Shown here: piece after piece, positions 1,615-52,520 of the stretch
Position numbering within the stretch: position 1 is the stretch's first letter
Layout: each line of letters starts with the position of its first letter
Assembly: GCA_016282685.1 (NCBI GenBank)
Contig: JAEELM010000040.1
Span: forward strand, 1,267 to 65,266
Direction of reading: 5' to 3'
DNA length: 64,000 bases
Source: Elusimicrobiaceae bacterium
GTDB lineage: Bacteria > Elusimicrobiota > Elusimicrobia > Elusimicrobiales > Elusimicrobiaceae
Position numbers and translations under genes: made by a program
Notes under the pieces: model-generated
What the model was told of the DNA's origin: nothing
The model's input: only the letters and a program-made list of their open reading frames with translations
Databases searched by the model: none

Positions 1615-2442
1615 TTATTTTGATAAAGAAAATAATTTCTTTAGACGTTGCTTAAGTGTCAATTTCTGTGGAGGCAGAATTCGGATGAGAACGGTGGATA
1701 TATTGTCTTGTCCATCCCGTTCGTTGGAAAGGCGGACCAATTGTTTGCATAATTTTACCAGGGGTGTAGATTCTCCTTCGCGTAAAATTTTAGCAATTTG
1801 AACATCACTTAATCCTTTGTATAATCCGTCGGAACAGAGTAACAAAGTATCACCTATTTGTACAGGGAATTTCAATAAATCAAATTCAATACTGCGTTTA
1901 ATACCCATAGCTCGTGTCAGAATGTTTTGTACACGTGAGTGGTTGGCTTCTTCTTTGGTTAACAGACCTTGGCGAACATGTTCCATGGCTAAGGAATGGT
2001 CTGTTGTAATTTGTACAAATTTATCATTGCGAAATAAATACAAGCGGGAATCCCCTACATGAACAGTGGTGGCATTTTCCTCATCAAAAATCACACCTGT
2101 TAGTGTAGTTCCCATCATCTTATACATGTCGGATGTTTGGGCCGTAGAATAAATTGCTTCGTTAGCCAAATTAGCAGCTAATAATAATTTGCGGGCCGTA
2201 GGGGTTAATCTAGGTAAAAATGTTTCGGGGACAGAAAGTTGCTTACGATTAATCTTTCGTATCGTTTCAGCTAATACGGAGACGGCGATATTGCTAGCAA
2301 TTTCTCCAGCGCTATGCCCTCCCATACCGTCTGCGACAATGCCTAAACTTAAGTCGGAAGAAATAAGAACATTGTCTTCATTTTTTTCGCGTATTTTTCC
2401 GATATCTGTTACAGCTGCAAATTCGATATCAAAATAGCTCAT
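1615..2442 (-). CDS. PP2C-family Ser/Thr protein phosphatase (Stp1/PrpC-like)
   Basis: TDIGKIREKNED, VADGMGGH, VHVGDSR, LLCSDGL and GQDN motifs; start ATG 2442 overlaps the kinase TGA (ATGA). Confidence 0.93.
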   Translation of the reverse strand: MSYFDIEFAAVTDIGKIREKNEDNVLISSDLSLGIVADGMGGHSAGEIASNIAVSVLAETIRKINRKQLSVPETFLPRLTPTARKLLLAANLANEAIYSTAQTSDMYKMMGTTLTGVIFDEENATTVHVGDSRLYLFRNDKFVQITTDHSLAMEHVRQGLLTKEEANHSRVQNILTRAMGIKRSIEFDLLKFPVQIGDTLLLCSDGLYKGLSDVQIAKILREGESTPLVKLCKQLVRLSNERDGQDNISTVLIRILPPQKLTLKQRLKKLFSLSK

Positions 2443-4784: not shown

Positions 4785-4883
4785 TTAATGTAGTAAAAAA
4801 CTTGATTTTCTTGCATTCAAGCTTTACAATATACTAAAGGTATCTTATCATATTTTATGTGATTTCGTACAGGGGAGGTAATT

Positions 4884-5345
4884 ATGCTGGAAAGCAGCTT
4901 TACATTACTAAGGGATATAGGAGAAATCATTTTAAAAGAAGATGAAAGTATTCGGTTTTCCATTGATGCTTACCATGGGTATCGGTATGTGTCTGTGCGT
5001 CGCTATTTAAAAACGAATGCTTTTGCCGGGGCCACGCGGGATGGAATTACAATGACCCCTGAAATTGTGCAGGCATTAGCGCCCAAAATACTGTCATTAC
5101 CTGACAACGAAACGGAACTAAAGGAAGGCATTTTTGGAAAATTTGCCAAACGTGCCGGTATTTGTATCGTATCTTCCATTGCTTCCTTTCATGGCACACG
5201 AGGATTGGATTTACGTCAATGGGAAGAAGATAAAGGGTTTACCAAAAAAGGAATATGGATTCCTTTAGATAAATTGCCAGAGGTAAAAAGATTATTCCAA
5301 CTGACGTTGGATGCATTGAACGAACAGCCGGATATTGACTTCTAA
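4884..5345 (+). CDS. Tandem PC4/YdbC-like putative ssDNA-binding protein
   Basis: Two repeats resembling the PC4 signature: YHGYRYVSVRRY...TRDGITM and FHGTRGLDLRQW...TKKGIWI. Confidence 0.65.
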   Translation: MLESSFTLLRDIGEIILKEDESIRFSIDAYHGYRYVSVRRYLKTNAFAGATRDGITMTPEIVQALAPKILSLPDNETELKEGIFGKFAKRAGICIVSSIASFHGTRGLDLRQWEEDKGFTKKGIWIPLDKLPEVKRLFQLTLDALNEQPDIDF

Positions 5346-5439: not shown

Positions 5440-6975
5440 TTATTTTTTTGTTTCAACTCCCCTTAACATTTGTTTTGCATTCATAAATACTTCTTCTACA
5501 GTAATGTTACGCATGCATTTAAAATGTCCCAATGGACATTTTCTTCCGCCATGTAATGCACAGGGACGGCAAGGTAAGTCTTTTACTTCTACGACGCGGT
5601 GCCCTTCTCCATATGGAAAAAATCCTAATTCGCGAGTAGTTGGCCCGAAAATAGCTAAAGTAGGAACTTTGAAAGCCGTGGCAATGTGCATCGGACCAGA
5701 ATCGTTTGTGATGAATAATTTGAAATGTCCCATTAGGGCCATTAAATCGGCCAAGCTGGTTTTACCACACAAACTAGCAGCATGGCCTTTGGATAATTGG
5801 CAAATTTTTTCACCCAAATCGGTATCTTTTTGTCCGCCGCCTACCAATACGGCTTGTACCCCCAACTCTTCTTGCAGGCGACTGATTAATTCTACGTAGT
5901 ATTCCATTGGCCAACATTTGGTGGGCCAGGCACTGCCAGGGTGAATACCAACCAGCGTTTTCCCCTTTAAGTTAAAATCGGTCATTAGCCGTTCTACGTT
6001 TTCTTCAGCAGATGCACTGTAATCCATTTGTAACTTCTCGGCGGTGAACTGTTCTTTTACAATTCCCTGTAATAGAGATAAATTGCGTTCTGCATCATGA
6101 ATCATCCAATTAAAAGGAACAGTTTTTGTGTAAAAGAATCGGCCTTCGCTGGAAGTAAACCCAATACGTACTTTTACCCCTGAAAGCCAAGCAATGAGTG
6201 CACTTCTAAAGCTGCGATGGGGCACTAATAAAATATCAATGTTAGATTTTTTAATAGCCTGAGCTGTTTTCCATACGCCGGCGATTTTATTCCAACCGCG
6301 TTTATCGTTTAAGATGATTTCCGATACATCTTTCAAAGGACTGAAAATATCTTTGGTTTGCGGGCGGGTAATAACTACAATTTTTGCTTCCGGGAAAAGC
6401 TTTGCCGTTTTATGAATTAGCGGGGTAGTAAGAACGCTATCTCCGATATAGGAAGTTTGGAAAATGCCAATTTTGTTTACTTTCTTTCCCAAATTGGCAT
6501 TTTTATATGCCCAATCCCCTAATTTAGGTTCTTTATAAATTATAGGGATGTCCCAGGCTTTTAGTGCTTCTAAATATTTATCTAACGTGTGGCGTTCTAA
6601 AACAGGTGAAGTCTTGTGGAAACGCACCAATATACGTCGAGCTAAGGCGTTTTTTTCATAACGTACACGATTAGGAATTTTGCTAAAAAAGCCCATTACA
6701 ATAGTTTTGAATGTAGCATGCAAATCTAAGTAATGCGTGTAATGCCCGGCACGGATTTGACGTATGTTTGCCAGGATGCCTTGTTTGGCAACGAGGATCT
6801 CATCAATATCCGGATGTCCGGCCAAAACATGTTTAAAAGCGGGTTTTACCATTAATGTAATGTGTGCCTGAGGCCATTGGGCCTTTATATTTTTATAAAC
6901 AGGAGAAGAAAGTACAATATCTCCCAAAGAAGATAAACGTACTACTAAAATTTTAGGCGTTTGGTTGTTCGTCAT
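5440..6975 (-). CDS. GT9 LPS heptosyltransferase (WaaF-like) with an extra N-terminal GT9 half-domain
   Basis: Two acceptor-domain starts (KILVVRLSSLGDIV and KIGIFQTSYIGDSV) and one C-terminal donor domain (HPGSAWPTKCW, ITNDSGPMHIA). Confidence 0.85.
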   Translation of the reverse strand: MTNNQTPKILVVRLSSLGDIVLSSPVYKNIKAQWPQAHITLMVKPAFKHVLAGHPDIDEILVAKQGILANIRQIRAGHYTHYLDLHATFKTIVMGFFSKIPNRVRYEKNALARRILVRFHKTSPVLERHTLDKYLEALKAWDIPIIYKEPKLGDWAYKNANLGKKVNKIGIFQTSYIGDSVLTTPLIHKTAKLFPEAKIVVITRPQTKDIFSPLKDVSEIILNDKRGWNKIAGVWKTAQAIKKSNIDILLVPHRSFRSALIAWLSGVKVRIGFTSSEGRFFYTKTVPFNWMIHDAERNLSLLQGIVKEQFTAEKLQMDYSASAEENVERLMTDFNLKGKTLVGIHPGSAWPTKCWPMEYYVELISRLQEELGVQAVLVGGGQKDTDLGEKICQLSKGHAASLCGKTSLADLMALMGHFKLFITNDSGPMHIATAFKVPTLAIFGPTTRELGFFPYGEGHRVVEVKDLPCRPCALHGGRKCPLGHFKCMRNITVEEVFMNAKQMLRGVETKK

Positions 6976-8233
6976 GTGTAATCACTTCCATAATATGATT
7001 TGTAGCACCCTTAAAACTAAGTGCTGTAGCCCGTGCTTTAGAAGCCATATTTTCCCGTTGAGGAGCATCGGCCAACAAATTCAACACTTTTGTTTTGAAA
7101 TTGGTTTCATTGACCAAAATGCCCCCGCCCCGTTCTAGCAAAGCTTGGGCCGTTAACGGCGTATTGTAGAAATATTTACCGAATAGAACCGTTTTTGTTA
7201 ACATAGCAGGTTCCAGTAAATTGTGTGCACCTCGCGGAACAATAGATCCGCCCACAAAAGCAAGCGAGGAACAAGCATAAGCTGATTGTAACATGCCCAT
7301 GGTGTCCAAGCAAAGAATATCTACAGATGCAGGGAAATCTTTTTGGCTGGCAAAAGCATAATGCAGTTTGCTTTGGCGAAGCATGTTTTCTATCTCTGCT
7401 TTACGTTCCAGATGACGTGGCGCAAAAATAATTTTAGTTCCTGTTTTTATGATATCAGGGGCCGAACGCAGCAAAACTACTTCCTCTTGTGGATGCGTAC
7501 TGCCCGCTACGAAAACTGGTTTTCCCCCCCAATGGAGGTTCGTAAGCAACTGCTGTATTTCACTGAGCTTGGAAGGGGTATCAGACAGTGAATCATATTT
7601 TACGTTTCCACACATCTTTAAGTGTTCGGGTTGCATGCCTAGACGTTGATAACGTGCGCAGTCTTCCTCTGTTTGTAGTGCAGCAAAATGTAAGTGAGAT
7701 AAAATTCGCTTAAAAAGAGGTTTTATCAGTAAATAAGCGTAAGTAGACTTTTGTGAGATACGCCCGTTTACTAAAGAGGTTGGAATGTTCGCCTGATAGG
7801 CTGCTTCTATCATGTTAGGCCAAAGTTCTCTCTCAACGATAAACAAACGATAGGGATGTGCTTTTCGGATAAAACGGCGACAGAAAGGATAAAAATCAAG
7901 AGGAGCAAGGACGGCTTTGGCAATATTCGGATTTTTTTGGGCAGTTTCTTTACCCGCCTGCGTGGAAGTGGAAACTAAAATATCACGTTGATAAAATGAC
8001 TTTAAGCGGGAAATAAGTTCCTGCATGGCGGTTACTTCCCCTACGCTGGCGCAATGCACCCAAATTGCATTTTGCGGAAGACTTTCCGAAGGTTCGTGAG
8101 CAAAGCGTTCCCTAAGTTCAGCCCGCAGATTTTTAAGGATTCTTCTACGAGGAGAAAATAAAAAACCGCCCACCACTCCCAGCGCTGCAATCGGGAAAGC
8201 CAAATTGGTAAGTACTAATAAAAAGATTCCCAT
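6953..8233 (-). CDS. waaA: 3-deoxy-D-manno-octulosonic acid (Kdo) transferase
   Basis: IWVHCASVGE, VERELWPN, LVNGRIS, GNVKYD, AGSTH, FAPRHLER, GAHNLLEPA motifs. Confidence 0.93.
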   Translation of the reverse strand: MGIFLLVLTNLAFPIAALGVVGGFLFSPRRRILKNLRAELRERFAHEPSESLPQNAIWVHCASVGEVTAMQELISRLKSFYQRDILVSTSTQAGKETAQKNPNIAKAVLAPLDFYPFCRRFIRKAHPYRLFIVERELWPNMIEAAYQANIPTSLVNGRISQKSTYAYLLIKPLFKRILSHLHFAALQTEEDCARYQRLGMQPEHLKMCGNVKYDSLSDTPSKLSEIQQLLTNLHWGGKPVFVAGSTHPQEEVVLLRSAPDIIKTGTKIIFAPRHLERKAEIENMLRQSKLHYAFASQKDFPASVDILCLDTMGMLQSAYACSSLAFVGGSIVPRGAHNLLEPAMLTKTVLFGKYFYNTPLTAQALLERGGGILVNETNFKTKVLNLLADAPQRENMASKARATALSFKGATNHIMEVITHDEQPNA

Positions 8234-8352
8234 ACACTACTATTATAGGATATTTCGTTTCGCTTCGTTCCGGAATTTTATGAAAAGACTTGTTTTTTTA
8301 AGATATTTTAGTTATACTTAAGTTGTGAATATCCTATACTAGCGAGGGCTTT

Positions 8353-9095: not shown

Positions 9096-11219
9096 TTACT
9101 GGTTTGTTTTCTTCTTGAAGAATTTCCCGATATCTTTTAGTGTAGTTGCGGCATCTGTTACTGCATCTTTTACCAAGGTATCTGCCGCTTGAACTGTTTC
9201 TTCAGTTGTGTCAACAACGTCTGTGTCAGTTGCTTTTTCAGTCTTACCATTCAACATATTTTCTAAAACGGATCCGACGGTGCGGGTAATATCCAATTTC
9301 CCCTTTGGGTTTTGGGGCGTTCCCGTGATTTTAATAACCATAGGAACGGTATCGGTTAATAAAGAGGCGTGTGCAAGCATGCGCAATGTGTCTTCCGGGA
9401 AATTTATAGTCCCGGTTGCTTGAATATCTACCAGAGAAGATTTAAAGACTGTATTGTCAATATTCATTACGCCGTTTGTAAAGGTGTAGGAGCCCTCTCC
9501 CATTGTAAAAGGAATCGATTTATCTTTCTCTTCTGAAGGAAAGATGTTTAGCTTTAAAGCCTGGGACACTTTACGTATAACATTTAGTGGTAAAAAGAGA
9601 ATTTTTACGAATTTATTTTCTTTTACAAATACCTCTAAATCCGTGATTGAGCCGGGTTGCAAAGAGAAGGAAAGAGTTCCGTTTGCTTGTTTCATAGAGT
9701 CGGAAAGTTGAGTAAGATTTGCCTGCAAAGTTAAACCTGTATTATGAAAATGCGGAACGGTTACTTCCCCTATTTTGATTTGCCCGTTTAAGTTAAGTAA
9801 TGGGGAATTATTCACTTTTTTCTCAGAAGAGGGAGATGCTGTTTCTTTATTGGAAGACGGAAATTCAGTAAGTACTAATTTGTCCAAATCTAAATTGAGC
9901 GTTAGATTGTTTACACTAGGGGTTGATTGATAAGAAAAATTTCCCACAAAATTACTTTGGTTAAGTAATCCCGTAAGCGCTGCAGAAAAATGCTGCAAGG
10001 AAAAAAGCGAAAAAGAACCGGATACCTGTTCAAAAGTAAACGGAGAATATAACAGGGAAACATTTTGCAATGAAAACAGTCCACTGAAATCGTTTTGCCC
10101 TTTCTTGGATGTCGCTTTGAAAGATCCGTCGATTTTTCCTGTAGGTTGTAGAGAACTCCCCCCCTTCATTTTCATCAATTGGGTTAAATCCGCTTGGAGG
10201 GTGCCACTGAATGAGTAGGGGTTATTGTTGTTTTCTTCCCAGCTGATATGGCCATTTGTAACAAGGCGGTTATCTTGGGCAGAAAGAGTGGCTTCCGATA
10301 CGGTGGCAAGGCTTTTTTCTAAATTTATTTGGGCCAAAATTTTCATGGCAAGTGTAGGAACAGAAAATTCAGGAGATTCCGGCCACAGTTGTTTTAATGT
10401 CTGTGCGGAGAGACCTTGTAGTTTCCCTTCTAAATCAATCTGCGGAGCTGTAAAATTGTTTACATTTCCGGACAGGACCAGGTCGGCATCTTGATAATGA
10501 GCGGTAAAAGAGTCAATTTTGGCAGTAGCATCTTTCCAATTTAAGTCCGATAACGTTATCACCCCTTCTGTTTGTATGGGGATACGAAGTTCTTGAAGAG
10601 ATTTTTGATTTAACTGAATTGTGGAATCAATTTTGATTCGAAAAGGGGTAGTCAAATTAAAGCGGTGTATTTCTAAGTTTAGGTGATCTAATGCACTTTG
10701 GGTGCCTTGGGTTTCATTCTTGTAAGAAATCTTACAATCTGAAACGGAAATTTCGTCAGCAGATAAGGAAAAAGAATTGTGCCCTTCACTGGTGTTTTGA
10801 GGTTGCTGAGGAAACGTTTTGGCCTTTTTGGTAGCGAAAGAAGCAAAATTAAAATTACCGTCTTTTTGTTGTACCAGATTTAATTCTAATCCATCTAACT
10901 GTAATGTGTTTATTTCAATACGCTTTTTTAGAAGAGGCTTTACGGCCACCTTAGCGACTAAGGTACGTGCCTGAATAAAAGTTCCGTTGGCAAAAGAAAT
11001 TTCTTCTGAGAGAGAAAAATCTCGCAGTGTCAGTCCAATCCAATTAAAAGAAACGGAATGAAAAGAAACTTCCCGGTTCCAGTTTTCTTTTGCATATTGA
11101 GCTACCCAGTTCTGGATTTTTTGTGGAGAAACGTAATGTTTTAATGCGACCCATCCCCCCCCTATTAACGAGAGTAAGATAATGGACATTACCAAAAGGA
11201 ATTTGAGCAATTTACGCAT
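9096..11219 (-). CDS. AsmA-family protein
   Basis: N-terminal TM anchor, beta-strand-rich body, AsmA-like C-terminus (GTINF, IKITGTPQNP). Confidence 0.8.
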   Translation of the reverse strand: MRKLLKFLLVMSIILLSLIGGGWVALKHYVSPQKIQNWVAQYAKENWNREVSFHSVSFNWIGLTLRDFSLSEEISFANGTFIQARTLVAKVAVKPLLKKRIEINTLQLDGLELNLVQQKDGNFNFASFATKKAKTFPQQPQNTSEGHNSFSLSADEISVSDCKISYKNETQGTQSALDHLNLEIHRFNLTTPFRIKIDSTIQLNQKSLQELRIPIQTEGVITLSDLNWKDATAKIDSFTAHYQDADLVLSGNVNNFTAPQIDLEGKLQGLSAQTLKQLWPESPEFSVPTLAMKILAQINLEKSLATVSEATLSAQDNRLVTNGHISWEENNNNPYSFSGTLQADLTQLMKMKGGSSLQPTGKIDGSFKATSKKGQNDFSGLFSLQNVSLLYSPFTFEQVSGSFSLFSLQHFSAALTGLLNQSNFVGNFSYQSTPSVNNLTLNLDLDKLVLTEFPSSNKETASPSSEKKVNNSPLLNLNGQIKIGEVTVPHFHNTGLTLQANLTQLSDSMKQANGTLSFSLQPGSITDLEVFVKENKFVKILFLPLNVIRKVSQALKLNIFPSEEKDKSIPFTMGEGSYTFTNGVMNIDNTVFKSSLVDIQATGTINFPEDTLRMLAHASLLTDTVPMVIKITGTPQNPKGKLDITRTVGSVLENMLNGKTEKATDTDVVDTTEETVQAADTLVKDAVTDAATTLKDIGKFFKKKTNQ

Positions 11220-12957: not shown

Positions 12958-14130
12958 TCAAACAATTTTGGCTAATGCTTGCCCGGCAGCATAACCACTT
13001 GCCCATGCCCAATGCAGGTTAAATCCTCCTAATCGGCCAGTTACGTCAAGCAATTCCCCTACTGCATAGAGCCCCGGGACTTTTTTACAAGCAAAAGTGT
13101 GGGGATTAATTTCCTTTGTATCAATCCCCCCTGCGGTCACTTCCGCTTTTGTATAACCGGCTGTTGAACAAGGAACAAAGGTGAAGTTTTGCAAGCGACT
13201 TGCGGCAGTTTGCAATTCTTGTTTGGAAGCATTGGCCAAGTCCCGTTCTAACTCACCTAAAAGGGATTTTATGATTTTATAAGATAGAAAATCTTTTAAA
13301 GAACTTGCCAGGGAAAGCGAAGAATTTTTGTATTTATAAAAATGTTGCAGTACATCTATTTGCGGTACAAAATTAATGGTAATTTCTTGTTGTGGCATAC
13401 AAAAAACAGAAGCTTGTAATACAACCGGTCCACTAATGCCCTCATGGGTAAAGAGTAAATCCCCTGTAAAAGTTTGTTTTTTAATATGTATTATGGCATT
13501 TAGAGAATTTCCGGCCAATGTGCAAAAAATTGGTCGAAGTGATTTGGGGGCAGTTAAACCACAAAGAGCCGGACGTTGAGGAATAATTGCTAGGCCAAAT
13601 TGTCGTGCGATTCGGATGCCCAGAGAAGATGCGCCTAAAGAGGGATAAGAAAGACCTCCGCAGGCCAATACTACGTTTCGAGCCCGTATATTTCCCGAAG
13701 ATGTTTGAATTATAAAAAAATCAGGTGTACCTTTTGAGACAGAAAGTACCTGCGTATTTAAAGAAAAACGAGTATTATTTTCTCGCGCACGTTGAACTAA
13801 TAGACGGACAATTTCTTTTGCAGAAGTTTGAGAAAAGAGTTGTCCATCTTGGCGTTCTTCATAAGGAATATGGGCTTTTTCAAGTAGGGAGATAAAGTCT
13901 TGTGGGTGAAAAGAGGCTAGTGCATTTTTACAAAAATGGGGTTGCTGACATAAAAAATCTTTGGCAGATATATGCAAATTAGAAAAATTGCATTTTCCGC
14001 CACCGGAAACATTTATTTTGGCACCGGGTTGTGCGTTATGGTCTAAGATAATTTTGGAGGCATTAAAGCTACCAGCACAGAATAGTCCGCTGGCCCCAGC
14101 CCCAATAATTGCTGTGTGAAAATCTGCCAT
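12958..14130 (-). CDS. HI0933/YhiN-family flavoprotein (NAD(P)/FAD oxidoreductase)
   Basis: IIGAGASG, SGGGKCNFSN, LFTHEGISGP, AEVTAGG, GELLDVTGRLGGFNLHWAWASG. Confidence 0.93.
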   Translation of the reverse strand: MADFHTAIIGAGASGLFCAGSFNASKIILDHNAQPGAKINVSGGGKCNFSNLHISAKDFLCQQPHFCKNALASFHPQDFISLLEKAHIPYEERQDGQLFSQTSAKEIVRLLVQRARENNTRFSLNTQVLSVSKGTPDFFIIQTSSGNIRARNVVLACGGLSYPSLGASSLGIRIARQFGLAIIPQRPALCGLTAPKSLRPIFCTLAGNSLNAIIHIKKQTFTGDLLFTHEGISGPVVLQASVFCMPQQEITINFVPQIDVLQHFYKYKNSSLSLASSLKDFLSYKIIKSLLGELERDLANASKQELQTAASRLQNFTFVPCSTAGYTKAEVTAGGIDTKEINPHTFACKKVPGLYAVGELLDVTGRLGGFNLHWAWASGYAAGQALAKIV

Positions 14131-14150
14131 ACATAAAGGATAGCAAAATA

Positions 14151-14173
14151 TGTTATACTACTAATAATTATTT
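14151..14173 (+). promoter_or_regulatory. Extended -10 plus putative Per box
   Basis: TG-T-TATACT (14151-14159) overlapped by TACTAAT-A-ATTATTT (14159-14173), 10/14 to TTATAATnATTATAA. Confidence 0.5.
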
Positions 14174-14189
14174 GAGAGAAGTTGTCCTT

Positions 14190-14639
14190 ATGAAAATAAA
14201 AAATCGCAAGGGAATGGTGCAGACCCAGTTGAAAAATTTTGGGGACCGTTGTAAAGAAGCAGGCTTGCGCATGACGCGGCAACGGCAAGAGATTTTTCGT
14301 GCAGTAGCTTCCTCTTGCGAGCATCCGTGTGCAGAACAGGTGTTTGCACGGGTGCGTTCCAAGTTACCCAATCTCTCTTTAGATACAGTGTATCGGACTT
14401 TGTCCTCCTTGGAAGAGATGGGTCTTTTGCAACGGGTGGGTTTGTCCTCCAAGGCACGTTTTGACGGTGATGCAAGACCTCATTGCCATTTTGTATGTAC
14501 TCAATGTGGAGAAGTGTATGATGTTTTCCTACGGCCCGGGGAGCAATTGCCGGTTCCGGTTTCTGTACGCGCTATGGGACAAATACGCCAATCCACGGTA
14601 CAGTTTAAGGGAATTTGTAAATCTTGCCAGTCTCGTTGA
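14190..14639 (+). CDS. perR: Fur-family regulator, PerR-like
   Basis: [38 protein letters not shown]; immediately upstream of rubrerythrin. Confidence 0.8.
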
Positions 14640-16667: not shown

Positions 16668-16803
16668 AAAAAATACAGATAAAAGCTCTCGGGGTTGTAT
16701 TTGAAGATTATTTTTAGCTATGATATCTATATAGTATTTTATTTAATTTTGTAGTAGTTGACAAATACAGCTCGTCCCTAAAAATTATTTTGCGGAGAAT
16801 AAA

Positions 16804-17940
16804 ATGATTCTAAAAAAAGATGTTTACCGTGTGGTGGTAGATTTTTTCCGTACGGAATTATCATCTTATCAATCGGAAGCGTTGGCCGTATTCGAAGAAG
16901 GAAAGGAAGAAGAATTTTTTGAACGCTTGCCCCGGGAAGTTCGTAAAAATGCATTTGATAAAGCGGCCTTATTTTTTGGTTATACTTCCAGGGAGTTCTC
17001 TTCTCTTGCTCTAATGGCAGAGTATGCCTATGCAGCTTATTTGAAAAATCGACGAGTTGTATTTACTACGCAGAATCGTACAGGTTCTACGGTAACATGT
17101 ATTCATACAGAAAATATGTTGGAAGAAGAAGGCTCTGCTTTGGTTCCGTTTTTTAAGGGAGTTAAACGGGTTGTCTCTTTAGTACCAGCCAATCAGTGGT
17201 ATGGATTTACTTTTACAATCACGTTGCCGCATATATTAGGAATAGACGTGGCTGTTTTACCGCCTCTCTCTACCCAATCATGGGAAGATTGGCTGCAGGA
17301 GGGCGATTTGGTGGTTGCTTTCCCCCTCTTTTGGAACTACTGGTTACGGGCCGGAAATAAATTTGCTCCAGGCGTAACAGCTCTATCTTCAACTGCTCCT
17401 TGTAAAGATGAAATTATTAATCACCTGTTTGGGGCAGGCCTTGCTCATTTTGCAGAGGTATATGGTTCCAGTAAAACCGGTTCATTGGCCATTCGTACTC
17501 ATGCCGGGGCGCCTTTTACCGTATTGGATTTTTGGGAAGTTTCTCGTCGGACAGATACGCCTAAATTTAAACGAAAATCCCAACCTGAGTGGTTGATGTT
17601 ACCGGATGAATTAGCCTTTTTATCTGATCGGTCTATTCGTGTTTTACGTCGAAAAGAGGACTGTGTCCGTGTGGCAGGAGTGGAAGTATATCCGCAGGAA
17701 ATAGAGCAAATTTTATCGAAACATCCTGCAGTAAAAAACTGTCGGGTGCGGTTGATGCGACCCGACGAAGGAAAACAATTGAAAGCTTTTGTAGTACTTA
17801 AGGAAGGTTATACGCCTGCTCATGAGAGCATTATACGTACTTACTTATCCCAAAAATTGACAGCTTATGAAATGCCTACCACCTTTACTTTTGGAGCGCA
17901 GTTGCCTGCCGCCGCAGTTGGAAAAGAATCGGATTGGTAA
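16804..17940 (+). CDS. Truncated, degenerate AMP-binding (acyl-CoA ligase-like) protein
   Basis: EVYGSSKTG, RKEDCVRVAGVEVYPQEIEQIL..HPAV, LKAFVV, AYEMP, GK motifs; the P-loop reads TTQNRTG instead of TSGSTG. Confidence 0.75.
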   Translation: MILKKDVYRVVVDFFRTELSSYQSEALAVFEEGKEEEFFERLPREVRKNAFDKAALFFGYTSREFSSLALMAEYAYAAYLKNRRVVFTTQNRTGSTVTCIHTENMLEEEGSALVPFFKGVKRVVSLVPANQWYGFTFTITLPHILGIDVAVLPPLSTQSWEDWLQEGDLVVAFPLFWNYWLRAGNKFAPGVTALSSTAPCKDEIINHLFGAGLAHFAEVYGSSKTGSLAIRTHAGAPFTVLDFWEVSRRTDTPKFKRKSQPEWLMLPDELAFLSDRSIRVLRRKEDCVRVAGVEVYPQEIEQILSKHPAVKNCRVRLMRPDEGKQLKAFVVLKEGYTPAHESIIRTYLSQKLTAYEMPTTFTFGAQLPAAAVGKESDW

Positions 17941-17979
17941 AATTTCTGTTTGATAATCTCTATCGTTGTTTGCAAGGGA

Positions 17980-18050
17980 AAGGGTCAAAAAGGCCTAGAT
18001 GGAAAATAGGTCTAAAGGCCCTTGCCCTTTTCAAATGAGAGCGTTAAAAT
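17980..18050 (+). promoter_or_regulatory. Tandem quasi-palindromic boxes plus sigma70 promoter (copy A)
   Basis: AAGGGTC-N5-GGCCTAG (17980-17998), ATAGGTC-N4-GGCCCTT (18006-18023), TTGCCC (18022-18027), 17 nt, TAAAAT (18045-18050). Confidence 0.6.
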
Positions 18051-18101
18051 GAGAGTAGAAAGATAGTAATTCCATTATTACTTCGTGGAGTGTGAATAAA
18101 A

Positions 18102-21100
18102 ATGAAAAAAATTCTAGCATTAGTCCTAAGTTTTTCTCTAATTACCGGTAGTATTACGCCAGCATTTGCTCAACGCCCTTTTCGGGGAATGATACCAGGA
18201 ACGTCTCCTCTGATTGAAAAGGGTTTGCAAACGGCCACACAAGGAGAAATTCTCCGTTTAAACTCTCTAACCCCTCAAATATACAGCACTCTATCACGCC
18301 AAATATTATCAACTGATCTTTATTCATTGCGCACAAAATTAAATTCAAATCTTACCATTTTCTCTTCCCGCCCTAAAGCACTTGCTGCACCTGCAATTTT
18401 TGCTTCAAGAGCCATGGAAACAGCAATGGTTGGGCAATTATTTGACAACGCTTTATTTTTAGGGATAAGAGGAGACCGAAGCGATTTACCTGTTTTGAAT
18501 AGATTCCATGACGCATTTAAAGAGACTCCTTTTGCAGATGCATCAGCCCTACTTCTTGGCCGTAGTATGGTAAATTATGGAGCATATGAAGAATTTAATC
18601 AATTTTTATTGCGGGAAAAGCCAACGGGAAATGTATGGGTAGATTTAAAAAATATTGCAAATCAAAATGGTGGGAATGTAACAGCTCCCGTTGTTGAACA
18701 AGGGCGTTTCGGTGTATCTCCCGATCTATCTACCAAGTTACAAGAGTATTTTGGGAAATTTAATTATTTGGGAAGTTTGAACGCGGATTTTTCTAAAGAA
18801 GGTACCGAAGTATTTTTGTTGCTTGGTAGGAATAAATCTCTTGCTCAAAGTTCCACGCAAGCCGAAAAAGCAGGTGCATCTTCTTCCGGTTCTTCCTTGG
18901 CGGAAGAATCAAGCGGACAAGAAGCTATTGAAGAAGGAAAACCGGTATTCCAACCGATTACATTGCCCGTAACACTAAATAAGCCGGTACTTGAAACTCC
19001 AGAAAACACTTCTTCCTATTCAACTCAAGTTGCCAATATTCCCAGCACACAACAGGGAAAAGCAGGAGACACATCTTCGACTCGTGACCGTTTCTTATCA
19101 TGGTTATCACCATCTTCAGATAGAAACGCTGATAAACAAGCCCGGGCTGTATTAAACAAGCCACAACCGTTAGCCACTCATTTGCGTGATATTGTAATAG
19201 GTAATGCATCCAATGCATTGAAAATTCAGGCTCTTCTAAAACTTTATGAACAAGGTTTTTTCAAAGATTTTTTGGATAAACAACCCGCGAATGTTAAAAA
19301 TAATATCAATAATGCCACCGACGAGCAACGAGGCCGTGCACTACTGCGTTTGTATCAAACTAAATATTTGGAAGAAGTACTTAACCAAATTACGGACGTG
19401 GTGGAACAAGGTTCTATTTTAGATGATTTGGAAAGTATTGTAACGCAAGCCGGATGGCAGGAAGAAGTGGAGCGTTCCTATGCAGCGGAAGACGTATTAC
19501 CGTTGAGGGAAGGTAACTTTAGCGGGGTAGTTCCTTCCGTACCGGAGGCAGATAAAGAAATCATTAAAAATGCCGTTCGTTTCCAGGGTTATGCCAAGAA
19601 GAATGCTTCTGTAGGGAAAGTAACGAAAAAAGGTGTTTATTATGAAAATAATATTCCTTTTTACTACCGTAACTCCAAAGGGGAACTTTCTAGCGAACCG
19701 GTTGGAATTTTAACGCAGGTGCCCGCTTCTCTATACGGAAGGATTTTGTCCTTTATGCATTTGGCTTCTCAACCTGGTTTGGTTATTCCGGAAGGTTTTG
19801 TATTAGCAATAGATGAAAAAGGACAATGGAAAATTGTTGCTCCAAAAGGGAATTTGGCTGCCATAGAAGCCAATCCTCAGTCTCGTAAAGTATTGGAACA
19901 AATGAATAAAGAAGGATCTGCACGGGTTCATTTGGATACTAATTACAGTCCAACCGATTTGTTAGCTATAGCCCATTTATTGGAAGTAAATCCTTCTCTT
20001 AACTTTGAATTATCTTTAAATACCCCCCACTCTCTTACTCAATTCTTAACGGCGCATGCCTTGTTTGTTGGAAATGATGCCGGGAATACGTTAACCGGTC
20101 CGTTTAAGGAGTCGTTGAAAAATGCTGCACAAGGGGTTGTAAATATGGTTACCAACCTTTTGGGTGGTGTGGGATATATGACACCGATTGCCGGCGGATA
20201 TGCTATGCCAACGATGGCACGTTGGGGAAACAAGAAAACGACCGAAGTAATTTATGGGGCAGCGGGTTTGGCATTGGCCGGATCTGTGTTTGGCTTAGGA
20301 ATGTTTGGTACAGTAAACCCTGCTACGTTACCTCTGGCTGCATTAGCAATTCCTACAGTTGCATTGGTTTTAGGGGCAAGTTTGGCCAACTCTTTCATTC
20401 CTACTTTCTTAAATTTCTATAAGGATCCGGCTGCTCGTACTGCTGCCAACTTGGATTTTAGTACCAAAAAACAAATGTCTCGTTTGGCCCTTTCCGGGAT
20501 AGTTTCCTTGGCCGCATTGGGCGGACTTAACTGGACGATTGTGGCTCCGATAGGGTTGGGATTGTTAGGAATTTCATACGCTTTGTTTAGAAATACACCT
20601 ATGTACCGTGAAAAAGGTATTGTTACAAAAGCCAAAGATCCCAACGAAGCTGCGTACATTGAAGCCTATAAAGAATTTAGAAAGAATTTACCGGAAATGC
20701 AGGCTATTAAGAGCCGTGTGAAAATGGTATATGCATCCTATGCGGCCAGTTTGATGATTTTAGGTCAAAGTGCCAACGCTGTCTTGCCAGGTGGTTGGGG
20801 ACAAGGTTTTATAACGGCCTGTATGTTGGCTACATTGGGTGTTCGTATGGCTGCTACCAAGTTGGTCAAGAAAAATATTATGACAGATGACCAATTAACC
20901 GGTTTATCGTTGCCTACGTTGGCTCTTTCCGGTGCCGCACTGGCTTTGTTGCCTTTCTCAGGGCCTCTAGCAGCTCTTACAGGGCTTGCAGGCATCTTAC
21001 ACTACATGGCCACGGCCGTTCCTGGACAATTGGATGCTGCCCGTATGCAAAATATTGTAACGGCTAAGATGCAGGAGTTGAAACAAGGCGTTTTGTCTGA

Positions 21101-22214
21101 TGAAACATTGACAGAAGCAGAAAAAGAAGCAGCTATTAAACAGTTAGAAGCAGAGGAAAAAGTATGGTCTGCTCAGGCTTCTAAAGATTATTCTCTATAT
21201 AATTCCCGTGGTTTGTGGGGTATTTTCGTAGCCGCTGCTGCTGCTTTCTTGTTCGAAGACCTTGGGCCACAGTGGACCCATGATATTTTGGAAACGATTT
21301 CAAGTGTATACGGAGAAAGTTCACATGGATTGGCGCTCGATCGCTTGCTGTTTGGCTATTCCGCTGGGGTGGCTGGATTGTTGGCCTTGAAAAATGTGAA
21401 TTTGACACGAGATGGTATCAACTTCTTCCGCAAGAAAAAACCGATTACAGCCGAAAATATTGCAAATCAGAAAATTACTCCCAAAGAGTTTTCCATTAAC
21501 AAAAATAATGCCACTATGATGTTGGGTAGTTTGACTAGCCCAAAATCAGGCGAAATAAAAGAATTGGAAAATCTGTTGATGGGTGTATACGGTATGTATT
21601 CTGAACAAAAATTAACGGATATTTTGATTCGTTTGCAACGAGTCCATAACCGCTTGGTGGCTATTTCTGAAGTGGCAGGGGCAGAAGTAGCACAACAAGC
21701 CTTCCAACGGGAAGAAAAGATGTTAATTAAATTCAGAAAAATTATGGAGTTGCCGCAAAGTGATTTCTCTGTTATGTTGCACCGCGAATTGGATAAATTC
21801 GAAAAAGCTCTATTTACTCCGGAGAAAAAATTGCGTCAAGATCCGTCTTATGTGGAAGAAAACATATATAAGTTGCCAAAAGCTTATAGTTCCTACGAGT
21901 CTGCCCGTCGTGTGTTGGACGAAATGGATCAAATGGCTTATACGTTATCTTCCGGAACGCCGATTGATTATAAGAAATTCGTAGATTATATGTTGCGTGC
22001 GCGCGAAGATCTGTTGACGTATGAAAAAGCTAACACGGCAGATTCGAAGCGTGTGAACGAATTGCGTCGCAAAATGGATAAGCTATGCGTATGGTTAAAT
22101 GAACAAGATTCTCAAAAAGGATTTTTAACCATTTTGCCTTCAGACAGTCCCAATGTAAGAGAAGGAAAACAAGCGATGCGCGATATGCTAGACGCTCCAG
22201 AGGAAGGGAACTAA
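18102..22214 (+). CDS. 1370-aa hypothetical protein: signal peptide, large soluble region, internal MFS-like 12-TM module, helical C-terminus
   Basis: MKKILALVLSFSLITGSITPAFA signal; 12 hydrophobic segments at about aa 645-1095 with an RWGNKK loop after the second segment. Confidence 0.75.
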   Translation: MKKILALVLSFSLITGSITPAFAQRPFRGMIPGTSPLIEKGLQTATQGEILRLNSLTPQIYSTLSRQILSTDLYSLRTKLNSNLTIFSSRPKALAAPAIFASRAMETAMVGQLFDNALFLGIRGDRSDLPVLNRFHDAFKETPFADASALLLGRSMVNYGAYEEFNQFLLREKPTGNVWVDLKNIANQNGGNVTAPVVEQGRFGVSPDLSTKLQEYFGKFNYLGSLNADFSKEGTEVFLLLGRNKSLAQSSTQAEKAGASSSGSSLAEESSGQEAIEEGKPVFQPITLPVTLNKPVLETPENTSSYSTQVANIPSTQQGKAGDTSSTRDRFLSWLSPSSDRNADKQARAVLNKPQPLATHLRDIVIGNASNALKIQALLKLYEQGFFKDFLDKQPANVKNNINNATDEQRGRALLRLYQTKYLEEVLNQITDVVEQGSILDDLESIVTQAGWQEEVERSYAAEDVLPLREGNFSGVVPSVPEADKEIIKNAVRFQGYAKKNASVGKVTKKGVYYENNIPFYYRNSKGELSSEPVGILTQVPASLYGRILSFMHLASQPGLVIPEGFVLAIDEKGQWKIVAPKGNLAAIEANPQSRKVLEQMNKEGSARVHLDTNYSPTDLLAIAHLLEVNPSLNFELSLNTPHSLTQFLTAHALFVGNDAGNTLTGPFKESLKNAAQGVVNMVTNLLGGVGYMTPIAGGYAMPTMARWGNKKTTEVIYGAAGLALAGSVFGLGMFGTVNPATLPLAALAIPTVALVLGASLANSFIPTFLNFYKDPAARTAANLDFSTKKQMSRLALSGIVSLAALGGLNWTIVAPIGLGLLGISYALFRNTPMYREKGIVTKAKDPNEAAYIEAYKEFRKNLPEMQAIKSRVKMVYASYAASLMILGQSANAVLPGGWGQGFITACMLATLGVRMAATKLVKKNIMTDDQLTGLSLPTLALSGAALALLPFSGPLAALTGLAGILHYMATAVPGQLDAARMQNIVTAKMQELKQGVLSDETLTEAEKEAAIKQLEAEEKVWSAQASKDYSLYNSRGLWGIFVAAAAAFLFEDLGPQWTHDILETISSVYGESSHGLALDRLLFGYSAGVAGLLALKNVNLTRDGINFFRKKKPITAENIANQKITPKEFSINKNNATMMLGSLTSPKSGEIKELENLLMGVYGMYSEQKLTDILIRLQRVHNRLVAISEVAGAEVAQQAFQREEKMLIKFRKIMELPQSDFSVMLHRELDKFEKALFTPEKKLRQDPSYVEENIYKLPKAYSSYESARRVLDEMDQMAYTLSSGTPIDYKKFVDYMLRAREDLLTYEKANTADSKRVNELRRKMDKLCVWLNEQDSQKGFLTILPSDSPNVREGKQAMRDMLDAPEEGN

Positions 22215-22234
22215 AATTCTTAGAATAGTTGAAT

Positions 22235-22267
22235 GGGGAAAGAGGGAAGACCTCTTTCCCCTTTTTT
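22235..22267 (+). terminator. Intrinsic terminator
   Basis: GGGGAAAGAGG-gaaga-CCTCTTTCCCC then TTTTTT. Confidence 0.85.
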
Positions 22268-22440
22268 ATAAAAAGTTACGAGCAAAGTTGTTTTTTTGTT
22301 ATAATAAGGGTAACTGCATTTGATGTGGTTTTTACGTAACGAAAGTGCTTTTTCTTCTTTCTATAATATAGAATTTTTAAAAAACAAAAAATGGAAAGAC
22401 GAAAAAACAATTTTGTTTTTGTTTTATAACAGGAGATATT

Positions 22441-23802
22441 ATGTTGGCTAAAATCTTAAATTGGTTTAAACCTTTGCCGGATGCTCAACCGCTAACGGAT
22501 GAACAAGAAATTAAACGTTTGTATCGTTCATGGCGTATTAAGATGTTTTTCTCCATGTATTTTGGGTATGCTCTTTTTTATTTTACCCGTAAAAACTTGG
22601 ATATTATTAAACCAGTGTTGATTAATAACGGGGTGTTTACCATAGAACAATTAGGCACCATCGGGTTTGTGATTTATTTAACGTACGGAATTGGTAAGTT
22701 TATCAGTGGTACGATTGCCGATAAATGTAATATCCGTGCAGTAATGGCTACCGGATTGTGTTCTTCTGCTATTATCAATATTCTATTTGCATTTTTACCC
22801 CAAATTCAACAAGTTTTGCCGCTATCATTAACATTTATGGCGGCTTTTTTATGGGGTTTAAACGGGGTTGCCCAATCTATGGGATTTCCTCCTGTGGCTA
22901 AAGGGTTAGTACACTGGTTTTCACCATCCGAAAGAGCTACCAAATGGACGTTGTGGTCTTCTTCGCATACCTTCGGGGCGTTCTTTGTAGCGCAACTTAT
23001 TTCCTTGTTATTATACTGGAAATGTGGCTGGCAAATGGCTTTTTTGGTACCGGCCGCTATGGGGATTGTCTATAGTATTTTTATGGTGTATTATATGACG
23101 GATATTCCCAAATCAGTGGGCTTGCCTGCTATTGAGATTTATCGTAACGATGTAATGCCTGTCAAACAAGACAAAAAAGATATGACCCAATGGCAAATTA
23201 TCAAAAGATATGTACTGGCAAACCCTTTCCTGTGGGCGTTGGCTATTTCGTACGTATTTATTTATTATGTGCGTTTCGCCACGTTAGACTGGGCAACCAC
23301 ATTCCTCAATCATCGTGGTTTTACAGAGGCTGCTGCCGCTTCCGCCGCTTCTGCCATGCCGTTTTTGGGGATGCCGGGTGGTATCGTGGCCGGTTATTTA
23401 GCCGACAAGTTTTTCAACGGACGTTGCACACAAATGAACATTATTTACTTGATTATTTTGGCTGCTAGCTGTTGGGGATTTTATAAGTTGGCTGCCCCAT
23501 CCGCTTTTTGGACGACAGCTATCTTGGCGGCCTTTATCGGTTTCTTTGTAGATGGTCCTCAAAACTTGGCTGGTGGTGTACAGGCTTCTCGTGTAACGGT
23601 ACAAAAAGCTGCCGCAGCGGCATGTGGATTTACCGGTATGTTTGGTTACTTTGGAGCTATGCTTTCCAGTAAAGGGGCTGCCTATATTAGCACACACTAT
23701 GGTTGGAAAGGTGTATATGTTTCCTGTATTTACGCGTGTATCATTGCTATGATTTGTATTGCAACAACGTGGAAAAAGGAAGCTGCTGCTCCTGCAAAAT
23801 AA
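22441..23802 (+). CDS. OPA-family MFS transporter (GlpT/UhpT/PgtP-like organophosphate:Pi antiporter)
   Basis: GYALFYFTRKN, YGIGKFISG, QSMGFPP, WSSSHTFG, FVDGPQ motifs. Confidence 0.9.
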   Translation: MLAKILNWFKPLPDAQPLTDEQEIKRLYRSWRIKMFFSMYFGYALFYFTRKNLDIIKPVLINNGVFTIEQLGTIGFVIYLTYGIGKFISGTIADKCNIRAVMATGLCSSAIINILFAFLPQIQQVLPLSLTFMAAFLWGLNGVAQSMGFPPVAKGLVHWFSPSERATKWTLWSSSHTFGAFFVAQLISLLLYWKCGWQMAFLVPAAMGIVYSIFMVYYMTDIPKSVGLPAIEIYRNDVMPVKQDKKDMTQWQIIKRYVLANPFLWALAISYVFIYYVRFATLDWATTFLNHRGFTEAAAASAASAMPFLGMPGGIVAGYLADKFFNGRCTQMNIIYLIILAASCWGFYKLAAPSAFWTTAILAAFIGFFVDGPQNLAGGVQASRVTVQKAAAAACGFTGMFGYFGAMLSSKGAAYISTHYGWKGVYVSCIYACIIAMICIATTWKKEAAAPAK

Positions 23803-44288: not shown

Positions 44289-44936
44289 TTATTTCAATTC
44301 CTTATTATATGATTTCAAAATTGCTTCAATTGAGTGCCAAACGGCCTTTTTTAATTTTTCCGGAGGAGTAGTTTGGGTAATATCTTCTTTAAGTGCTTGT
44401 AAAATCATAAAACGATCACATTCTGATAAATTAACTTGTAAAAACATTAAATGTGCCAAAAGAATCATTTCATCCGAATCTTTTTTTAATCCAGTTAATC
44501 GTGACAATGTATGCTTTACCAAATTGTTCAAAGGTTCTGCGTATGATTTTAAAGACATTAACATTTCGGAAGAGTCTTCTAATTCCGCAAATGTAAAGAT
44601 GCGTTCCAAAGGCACATTGACGCGATTGAATTTCATTTCCAGCACTTTGTCAATAATACGGTGCAGAGCCTCCCATGTTTCTTCCATGGATAATTTATCG
44701 ATATCTTGGGGCGTGGGAAGGGGCTTGTCCCCCCCAAAAATATAACTTCGGTTTTTAGAAAGTAAATATTTAAGCGTTTCTAAATATAGGTTATGTTTAT
44801 TTCCGAAGTGATAAGAAATAGAAGATACATTTTCTCCCGCTTCTGTTACGATTTCTCGAATAGAGGTGGAGGTGTACCCATTTTGGGCAAACAAGCGAGC
44901 TGCCGTGCGAAGTAGTTTAACGCGTGTATCTTGCAT
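44289..44936 (-). CDS. TetR-family regulator (CerR/CecR-like) heading the RND operon
   Basis: LLRTAARLFAQNGY..TSIREI..EAG....ISYHFGNK..LY. Confidence 0.92.
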   Translation of the reverse strand: MQDTRVKLLRTAARLFAQNGYTSTSIREIVTEAGENVSSISYHFGNKHNLYLETLKYLLSKNRSYIFGGDKPLPTPQDIDKLSMEETWEALHRIIDKVLEMKFNRVNVPLERIFTFAELEDSSEMLMSLKSYAEPLNNLVKHTLSRLTGLKKDSDEMILLAHLMFLQVNLSECDRFMILQALKEDITQTTPPEKLKKAVWHSIEAILKSYNKELK

Positions 44937-44955
44937 AAATTTATCTTCCCTGAAA

Positions 44956-44998
44956 ATTATACAAAATAATTTGTTTATATTCAAACAGTTGTTTGAAT
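44956..44998 (-). promoter_or_regulatory. Promoter and probable TetR operator
   Basis: TTGAAT (44984-44979), 17 nt, TATAAT (44961-44956); palindrome ATTCAAACA-gt-TGTTTGAAT (44979-44998) covers the -35. Confidence 0.75.
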
Positions 44999-48046: not shown

Positions 48047-48120
48047 AAGCTTTCTTTTCTCAATTGAAATGCGGAGTGCTGGTTTGGAAAGCCCTTCTAT
48101 TTTTAGTATAATTAGAACAT

Positions 48121-48771: not shown

Positions 48772-48780
48772 GAATGATTT

Positions 48781-50496: not shown

Positions 50497-50516
50497 TTTA
50501 AATTTTTCCCCTATTT

Positions 50517-50545
50517 TTCCCCGGCACCTAGCCGGGGAATTTTTT
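50517..50545 (+). terminator. Terminator after wzc
   Basis: TTCCCCGGC-accta-GCCGGGGAA then a T run. Confidence 0.8.
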
Positions 50546-50557
50546 GCTCATGTTTAT

Positions 50558-50626
50558 CTAGGCCTTTTTCCCCCTTTCCAGATGGGTCCAATGACCCTTG
50601 TAAGTTGGTATAGATATTTTTAAAAT
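50558..50626 (+). promoter_or_regulatory. Tandem quasi-palindromic boxes plus sigma70 promoter (copy B)
   Basis: CTAGGCC-N5-CCCCCTT (50558-50576), ATGGGTC-N4-GACCCTT (50582-50599), TTGTAA (50598-50603), 17 nt, TAAAAT (50621-50626). Confidence 0.6.
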
Positions 50627-50644
50627 GATGATAAAGGAGTATAA

Positions 50645-51295
50645 ATGAGAAAAATAACATTTTTTATATTGTGCGTTTTTCTGCCATTGTTGGGGCAGGC
50701 ACAAACCTCCAAGCAAGCTCTTCTAAAGCTTTTTATGCCCAAAAGAAGTTTCTTATCGGGGGTCACCACTACAGGAGATGCTACTCGAGATGCTATTGCC
50801 CTAGCTGCACTGCGCGCAGACTCAGAAGCCCAGATACAGGCCAATAAACAAATTGTACAGATAGCACAAAGAGCTCTTTCAGAAGGGCGTCCCACGAATT
50901 TTACCTCTTTGTTAGCGTATGAAATATTGCAAAAGAAATCTTTGTTACTTTTTAACGCCACCTCCGCGAATGTGAAGACGAAAAGGCTTGACGTTATGGT
51001 AGTTTCAAGTATTGGAGAGATGAAAAGAGAATTGGTAGAAGTGAGCAAAATGGCTCCTTCTTTAACTTTTGAACAATTTATAGTGATGGCGGAGTCCGCC
51101 AAAAGTCGTTTACAAGAGATAGACCTCTTGCAGATGGCGCTCGATACGTATTCTAAGGAACATCCAGATGGCGTGCATGACTTTTTCTTTGCTGGGCAAG
51201 ATGCTCTGGCGTGGTTGAAGTATTACTACAGTGCACTTATCGGGAAGGAAAGTGAAATTCCTGCTGACAAGGGCCAAAAATCCTATGAAAAATAG
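50645..51295 (+). CDS. Hypothetical exported protein
   Basis: Signal peptide MRKITFFILCVFLPLLGQA, AAGGAG RBS, helical body. Confidence 0.75.
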   Translation: MRKITFFILCVFLPLLGQAQTSKQALLKLFMPKRSFLSGVTTTGDATRDAIALAALRADSEAQIQANKQIVQIAQRALSEGRPTNFTSLLAYEILQKKSLLLFNATSANVKTKRLDVMVVSSIGEMKRELVEVSKMAPSLTFEQFIVMAESAKSRLQEIDLLQMALDTYSKEHPDGVHDFFFAGQDALAWLKYYYSALIGKESEIPADKGQKSYEK

Positions 51296-51327
51296 GGGCG
51301 AAGAAATTGCATTAGGATTGATAAACA

Positions 51328-51358
51328 AAAAACCTCCGCTTTGAAAGCGGAGGTTTTT
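51328..51358. terminator. Bidirectional terminator
   Basis: AAAAACCTCCGCTTT-g-AAAGCGGAGGTTTTT. Confidence 0.85.
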
Positions 51359-51375
51359 GATAAGTAATTTATCAA

Positions 51376-52497: not shown

Positions 52498-52520
52498 TTC
52501 TTGCTTTCTCCCTAAATTTT

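Follow-up and report, generated by a model that had tools for sequence, protein, structure and literature searches.

Do two unrelated genes for exported proteins in the DNA of an uncultured Elusimicrobiaceae bacterium from the rumen or gut carry one and the same operator and promoter, how far does such a module extend beyond them, and what kind of protein would read it? The question arises in a stretch of 64,000 nucleotides (hereafter the window), in which promoters of one design, here called A and B, precede a gene for a 1370-aa protein and a gene for a 216-aa protein. Little work has been done on the Elusimicrobia, a phylum from which few members are in culture; we know of nothing that has been established about gene regulation in this phylum, and a search of the literature returned no description of such a motif in Elusimicrobia.

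Gene A (18102..22214, + strand) encodes the 1370-aa protein, in which a signal peptide is followed by a membrane region of several helices in the centre and by a helical C-terminus, and gene B (50645..51295, + strand) encodes a 216-aa orphan with a signal peptide. The larger protein gave no match in Pfam, NCBIfam or PDB, and the AlphaFold2 model of its residues 334-1370 was poor (pLDDT 54); the smaller one matched no Pfam or NCBIfam family and had one relative only, near-identical, among 5.8 billion proteins. BLASTP detected no similarity between the two proteins, in agreement with an earlier sequence-only reading of this DNA that had treated the two genes as unrelated.

At promoter A the proximal box consists of T18007 followed by AGGTCTAAAGGCCC (18008-18021, + strand; AGGTC-TAAA-GGCCC) and abuts the -35 element TTGCCC (18022-18027, +), from which a 17-nt spacer leads to the -10 element TAAAAT (18045-18050, +) and a predicted start at approximately 18057. 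Promoter B has T50583 and GGGTCCAATGACCC (50584-50597, +; GGGTC-CAAT-GACCC), the -35 element TTGTAA (50598-50603, +), a 17-nt spacer, the -10 element TAAAAT (50621-50626, +), a predicted start at approximately 50633 and the ribosome-binding site of gene B, AGGAG (50635-50639, +); the intrinsic terminator of an upstream Wzz/tyrosine-kinase gene (50517..50546, +) divides it from that operon. Assuming a start 7 nt after the -10 element (18057 and 50633), both proximal boxes are centred at -42.5, and with a symmetrised PWM that was trained on orthologue sites only they scored 19.8 (A) and 18.6 (B). The proximal 18-mers ATAGGTCTAAAGGCCCTT (A) and ATGGGTCCAATGACCCTT (B) share 14 of their 18 letters, and box and -10 element are equally far apart at the two loci; both counts of the sequence-only reading are thereby reproduced.

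Further upstream, the two loci share a 24-nt element, whose copy A (17977..18000, +) is identical at 22 of 24 positions to the inverted copy B (50556..50579, -), and a match of this kind was reproduced in 0 of 100 shuffles. Copy A holds distal box A, GGGTC-AAAAA-GGCCT (17982-17996, +; N5 spacer, score 18.7, centre at approximately -68 and 25.5 nt from that of proximal box A), and copy B holds distal box B, T-AGGCC-TTTTT-CCCCC (50559-50574; centre 23.5 nt upstream of that of proximal box B); the former is a good N5 palindrome, the latter is good in its promoter-distal half only. A shared distal box had been proposed before, and the sharing stands; its orientation had been missed, the element being inverted between the loci. 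Approximately ten genes in the window encode proteins with signal peptides, including porin, OEP, LolA-like, Poly_export, lipocalin and DUF3078 proteins, and the box is carried by only two of these genes, the two orphans.

A non-regulatory origin of the likeness would be a chance resemblance, a duplicated or mobile promoter cassette, or the short terminator hairpin of an upstream gene. Within the window alone (64 kb) the short proximal patterns are indeed not significant post hoc, as 20-46% of shuffles scored equally; moreover, the extent of the inverted 24-nt identity is more than a palindromic site needs, and GGGCC-N4-GGCCC-TTTT hairpins occur as false positives (L020 7811). The DNA outside the window argues the other way. 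Orthologue loci were collected from seven protein-database and nine genome-collection homologues of the 1370-aa protein, and box and promoter are kept in all 13 orthologues of the gene (36-95% protein identity) for which the upstream DNA reaches far enough. The flanking intergenic DNA of these 13 promoters has diverged, and RGGNC-N4-GNCCC, TTG and the -10 element are still in register; since the sequence between the conserved elements is unconserved, the module is not a mobile cassette. An architecture scan, defined as a PWM box with TTG at an offset of 0-1 and TAnnnT after 16-18 nt, gave 15 matches in 314 kb of non-redundant Elusimicrobiaceae DNA compared with 0.0 in 30 Markov-2 simulations. 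Four of these matches lie outside the training set, i.e. those of the 216-aa gene in the window, an operon in L019, its orthologue in L021 and a 459-aa gene in L016, and a 370-aa gene in L014 has a box and TATAAT at the same distance and no TTG, for which reason it was missed by the scan. The L019 operon (171-aa and 327-aa genes) and its L021 orthologue have tandem boxes 24-25 nt apart, located just past a terminator. All these non-training sites precede genes for signal-peptide proteins that are mutually unrelated. As to a terminator, locus B already has its own strong one upstream. Combining the scan counts, the conservation among orthologues and the targets that are unrelated by BLASTP, we conclude that the shared module is confirmed as real and lies well beyond chance, and that a non-regulatory origin is largely refuted and very improbable.

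The MAGs that harbour relatives of the 1370-aa protein are mostly titled Elusimicrobiaceae, Elusimicrobium, Avelusimicrobium or Elusimicrobiales, the exceptions being one Muribaculaceae and one "uncultured bacterium". The former, L016 (CAVKWQ010000001.1), has an orthologue of the 1370-aa gene with the same promoter module and a second module, and its bin is probably mislabelled. The second module precedes the gene for the 459-aa exported protein (22330-23709, - strand), for which a borderline Trypsin_2 match was obtained (27.4 bits; cut-off 27.6); apart from this match, Pfam, NCBIfam and PDB sequence searches with the target proteins were empty as to function. Relatives of the 459-aa protein (449-460 aa) are present in L026, L068, L074, L083, L098 and L105, and in this family the ATG is positioned 6 nt after the -10 element, suggesting a leaderless mRNA. 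The second gene of the L019/L021 operon (7322-8305, - strand, and 7107-8102, - strand, respectively) encodes an exported protein of 327/331 aa with a YRG...FSTS...E-x-E-like pattern that recalls R-S-E ADP-ribosyltransferases, and it had no Pfam or PDB sequence match. Finally, in the distant orthologues, L012 (approximately 9830-9890) and likewise L016, L017, L018 and L020, TTGTGATACAATAAAAGAGGAAAC...GTTTCAA is found approximately 100 nt upstream of the box; it resembles an extended -10 promoter with a short inverted repeat behind it, gave no Rfam match, and may mark an additional promoter or a small transcript.

To see how far the module extends, metagenome contigs were scanned with the pattern RGGHCYWWWGRCCCTTGT-N19-TANNNT, which fixes the box-TTGT-N19-TAnnnT geometry, and at least 119 matching stretches were found; judged by their names, many of the contigs come from gut-type metagenome assemblies. 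Among the matches listed, 95 stretches have an ORF start within 130 nt of the -10 element, and by a crude rule 86 of these 95 ORFs (91%) begin with a signal-peptide-like N-terminus, compared with 34% for long ORFs of these loci and 37% (21/57) for the genes of the window. The 95 proteins, again among the matches listed, fall into 58 BLAST clusters, of which 49 are signal-peptide-like. The check proposed in the sequence-only reading, whether the motif is enriched near -42 of orphan genes for exported proteins, thus comes out strongly positive across metagenomes (86/95 versus 34-37%). Its claim that the module marks lineage-specific exported proteins agrees with this signal-peptide enrichment; its regulon of two loci was too small, given a promoter class of at least 49 protein families. 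The density of sites, approximately two per 64 kb in the window, and two in 29 kb and two in 60 kb in two metagenome contigs, suggests tens of sites per genome.

The same data bear on the promoter character of the hexamers. In the non-redundant set among the matches listed, the unfixed -10 positions are near the consensus TAnAAT, with A at -9 in 53/66 and A at -8 in 46/66, and among the 95 stretches of the matches listed the ATG is located exactly 6 nt after the -10 element in 25, which corresponds to a leaderless mRNA layout and is an independent pointer to the start site. The features of a sigma-70-type promoter are therefore all found, i.e. TTGnnn, a 16-18 nt spacer, TAnnnT, consensus-like bases at unfixed positions and a predicted start 6-8 nt downstream, and the -10 and start positions predicted earlier are backed by the near-consensus bases and the 25 ATGs.

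Three side observations concern the metagenome matches. Approximately one third of the box-controlled proteins (e.g. L040, L057, L070, L077, L086 and L104) have a basic K/V/A/G-rich stretch (AQ..VK..K..) directly past the signal-peptide cleavage site, which might serve these proteins in common for sorting or anchoring. In L066, L075, L102, L123, L127 and L133, one of which is from a TARA ocean scaffold, the matches are near-identical (...gaatatgacagt GGGTCTTTAGGCCC TTGTGA...) and no ORF follows; this is probably an unrelated conserved sequence that fits the pattern by accident. In L131 a match with no distal box is located 45 nt upstream of the gene for HtpG (Hsp90), and here GACCCTTG could rather represent the -35 element of a sigma-32-type promoter in another organism.

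As the metagenome pattern itself fixed the spacing from box to -10, the strict geometry of the module rests on 18 promoters that were found by PWM alone. In these, the offset between box and -35 (TTG) is 0-1 nt in 16-17 of the 18, and the best distal box, with an N4 or N5 spacer, is positioned 24-26 nt upstream in 16 of the 18. The full site can be written approximately as T-A/G-G-G-N-C-N4-G-N-C-C-T/C-A, where the TTG of the -35 element takes the place of the right flank in the proximal copy. Among the matches listed, T precedes the box in 63 of 66 non-redundant cases, and in the same 66 the right half-site G-N-C-C of the distal box is seen at -64 to -61. Boxes scoring at least 10 in 65 non-redundant promoters among the matches listed are centred at -42.5, at approximately -66.5 (23 promoters) and at approximately -90.5 (four promoters), such that the boxes repeat with a 24-bp period, and the DNA between them is A/T-rich; in the same 65 promoters no box was detected between -42.5 and +80. 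Three boxes in a row with a 24-25-nt period precede a single promoter in L028 (9290-9351) and in L055 (2464-2526), and in L013 (8346-8383) the distal box is an exact inverted copy of the proximal one (GGGGCCATAGGTCCT ... AGGACCTATGGCCCC; 15-nt arms, 9-nt spacer). Two high-scoring box-like palindromes of the window, GGGTCTTTTGTCCC (54749-54762) and AGGCCATTGGGCCT (6871-6884), are located within or at the ends of coding regions with neither TTG nor -10, and are probably chance matches or short hairpins.

Within the box, GG, C and the A/T core are invariant, and position 4 of the half-site varies (A, C or T) with no covariation and is mismatched in L011 and L012. Because base-pairing at position 4 is not kept and both half-sites are, the palindrome is of the protein type and not an RNA stem. 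An RNA hairpin or terminator was rejected on these grounds and on others, i.e. a stem of 5 bp, a TTG instead of a T-run next to it and boxes upstream of the start; an Rfam search of the window and four orthologue loci returned one tRNA only and nothing at the boxes. The Rex box is TTGTGA-N6-TCACAA and CtsR binds heptad repeats; both were rejected because a partner half-site is missing here.

What, then, would read the box? The explanation we favour, and hold to be somewhat better than an even bet, is a dimeric transcription factor that acts on tandem sites by class II activation of a set of exported-protein genes. One dimer of a protein recognising the palindrome T-R-G-G-N-C-N4-G-N-C-C-Y-A would occupy the proximal box from -49 to -36 (centre -42.5), against the TTG of the -35 element, and a second and sometimes a third dimer would bind the weaker boxes 24-25.5 bp further upstream (approximately -66.5 and -90.5) across the A/T-rich spacer. 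The proximal dimer would contact region 4 of sigma and/or the alpha subunit, as DosR, LuxR-type activators, FNR and lambda cI do, and the upstream dimers may add cooperative binding. The module would in this way join an operator, at a fixed distance, to a promoter of the housekeeping type, and it would head a large and fast-evolving set of exported-protein genes of gut and rumen Elusimicrobiaceae, including the 1370-aa and 216-aa genes. Binding by a protein and its role as an activator are both inferred; activation is favoured by the 0-1 nt offset between box and -35, by the strictly upstream array with its 24-bp period and by the core promoter being free of boxes. Counting against this explanation, the 24-25.5 bp spacing corresponds to a non-integer number of helical turns. 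The activator-controlled operator-promoter of the sequence-only reading accordingly stands as a shared operator and promoter module, its activator role being a deduction from geometry.

The same operator could instead be bound by a repressor, whose tandem dimers, spanning -97 to -36, would block access to the UP-element region and to sigma region 4 of otherwise strong promoters and so keep the accessory secretome silent until a signal releases the protein; we consider this a serious rival, though clearly less probable than activation. With TTG, a 17-nt spacer and TAnAAT the core promoters are close to consensus, and many are leaderless with a strong -10 element; they are perhaps not in need of an activator, which suits a repressor. 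On the other side, none of the 65 promoters among the matches listed has a box over the -10 element, the spacer or the start, and the position of the box relative to the -35 element is fixed within 1 nt, whereas repressor operators usually tolerate varied positions.

Expression data bear on both possibilities. The DNA of the window is present in bovine and sheep gut metagenome runs, and in two sheep-gut metatranscriptomes contigs of a strain that is 92-95% identical span the 1370-aa gene, the most 5' of them starting at 18077, i.e. between the predicted start (18057) and the ATG (18102); neither box A nor the acyl-CoA ligase-like gene upstream of it is covered by an RNA contig of these two metatranscriptomes. 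The 216-aa gene has no RNA contig in them, nor in the other RNA runs searched, and a neighbouring porin-like gene is well represented in RNA where the 216-aa gene has no contig. Transcription of the 1370-aa gene in vivo argues against a repressor, and the lack of an RNA contig for the 216-aa gene next to well-represented neighbours argues for one. The RNA contigs are consistent with the assignment of promoter A and leave co-expression of A and B unsupported; that one gene is represented and the other is not speaks weakly against strict co-regulation, contig-level data being a weak measure. Within these RNA and DNA runs, the contigs that span 16700-22400 are approximately 90-97% identical to the window and those over 48000-52600 mostly 99-100%, and by this comparison the large exported 1370-aa protein appears to diverge faster between strains.

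It has also to be considered that no separate factor is involved, and that the box is an extended upstream element which is read by an alternative sigma factor or by the C-terminal domains of alpha and sets apart a special class of promoters. A sigma-32 promoter has the -35 element CCCTTGAA, N13-17 and CCCCAT, and sigma-54 promoters have GG-N10-GC at -24/-12. The box is always fused to the -35 element, CCCTTG resembles the sigma-32 -35 element, and one match (in L131) precedes htpG. The -10 element is however of the housekeeping type, TAnAAT, and neither CCCCAT nor the ECF-type CGTC; the box is a two-fold symmetric 14-16-mer whose far half at -49 to -45 lies beyond the reach of sigma region 4; and full boxes recur 24 and 48 bp upstream with no TTG. 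We therefore regard an element read by RNA polymerase itself as improbable. As specific candidates, sigma-54 was rejected because the spacing from GG to GC does not fit, and sigma-32 because of the TAnAAT -10 element.

Returning to the tandem-site activator, the module can be compared with well-studied class II systems. The FNR box, TTGAT-N4-ATCAA, is centred at -41.5 at class II promoters, and the CRP/FNR family is common in anaerobes. Common to FNR/CRP and the present module are a 14-bp palindrome of the 5-N4-5 type that abuts or overlaps the -35 element, additional upstream sites and an anaerobic host; in contrast, the half-site is unrelated to TTGAT or TGTGA, the centre is at -42.5 (relative to the predicted start) and not -41.5, and no CRP/FNR helix-turn-helix was detected in the fetched DNA with approximate seeds. 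In LuxR/TraR systems a dimeric activator that contacts RNA polymerase binds a palindromic lux box of 18-20 bp at -42.5, usually a single one. The present palindrome has the same centre, and differs in that its sequence is unrelated to the lux box and that it forms part of an array with a 24-bp period; no signal synthase or LuxR homologue was seen here.

The closest likeness is to DosR (DevR) of Mycobacterium tuberculosis, a response regulator of the NarL family with a GerE-type helix-turn-helix. The DosR half-site is G4G5G6A7C8T9 and tandem boxes are the architectural hallmark of this regulator; at tgs1 the primary box is centred at -42.5 and the secondary box at -63.5 (PMC3177182). DosR contacts sigma region 4 and the C-terminal domain of alpha (PMC13486717). 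The likeness of the present box to a DosR box, pointed out in the sequence-only reading, is real, as the core GGGNC-TTAA-GNCCC agrees with GGGAC-TWWA-GTCCC at 12 of 14 positions. Both systems have GGG-N-C half-sites around a 4-bp A/T core, tandem boxes of which the secondary ones are weaker, and a proximal box at -42.5 that adjoins or overlaps the -35 element (here from -49 to -36, relative to the predicted start). The tandem arrangement thus bears out the earlier comparison and the spacing does not, being 24-25.5 bp here and 21 bp, in phase with the helix, in DosR. Other differences are that position 4 is not A-specific here, that the flanks are T-R-GGNC compared with TT-S-GGGAC in DosR, that a TTG -35 element is retained, that the targets encode exported proteins and are not hypoxia genes, that the phylum is a different one and that the approximately 1 Mb of fetched DNA yielded no regulator of the GerE type. 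By analogy, the module may work like a DosR-type promoter, which does not imply that its regulator belongs to the DosR family.

A gene for the regulator was sought by phmmer against all ORFs in the approximately 1 Mb of fetched DNA, using approximate seeds for GerE, NarL, RcsB, FixJ, DosR, CRP, FNR, CheY, OmpR, LexA, XRE, MarR, TetR and sigma region 4. Matches were obtained only in one unrelated contig with 63% GC, apart from a weak TetR match, and with these approximate seeds no GerE-, CRP/FNR-, OmpR-, XRE- or MarR-type gene was found near any site in the approximately 1 Mb; nor did the comparison of neighbour genes across loci show a recurrent one that resembles a regulator. A NarL/LuxR-type regulator, as suggested in the sequence-only reading, accordingly has the likeness of the box to that of DosR in its favour and no matching gene in the approximately 1 Mb. 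The classical regulators encoded in the window are Fur (14109-14639) and TetR (44289-44984) only, whose known sites are unrelated to the box. Besides these two, the window's only signalling or nucleic-acid-binding candidates are encoded at 1615-5345, i.e. a 781-aa Ser/Thr protein kinase next to a PP2C phosphatase, and a protein of 153 aa whose ssDNA-binding domain is PC4/YdbC-like.

The module looks like the binding site of one regulator for much of the accessory secretome. Since one DNA signature stands before at least 49 otherwise unannotatable families of exported proteins, it would allow the accessory secretome of gut and rumen Elusimicrobia to be predicted from sequence alone, including candidate surface proteins and candidate proteins for host and community interaction. 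For a phylum that has received little study, this would be a way into the accessory secretome through sequence. Moreover, the module is a defined bait for identifying the regulator, and a clean natural case for class II-type activation, for an array with a 24-bp period and for leaderless promoters. If the regulator is DosR-like, a recognition code of the GGGAC type would be used far outside Actinobacteria. More tentatively, and with slightly less than even expectation, we suggest that in gut and rumen Elusimicrobiaceae most lineage-specific, fast-evolving exported proteins are under one master regulator through this rigid, often leaderless plug-in module. If so, the regulator would be either a DosR-like protein of the GerE type in a phylum remote from Actinobacteria or a member of a new DNA-binding family with convergent recognition of GGG-N-C, its targets would include the 1370-aa membrane protein, a trypsin-like protease and dozens of orphan families, and the whole accessory secretome would switch on together upon a gut or host signal.
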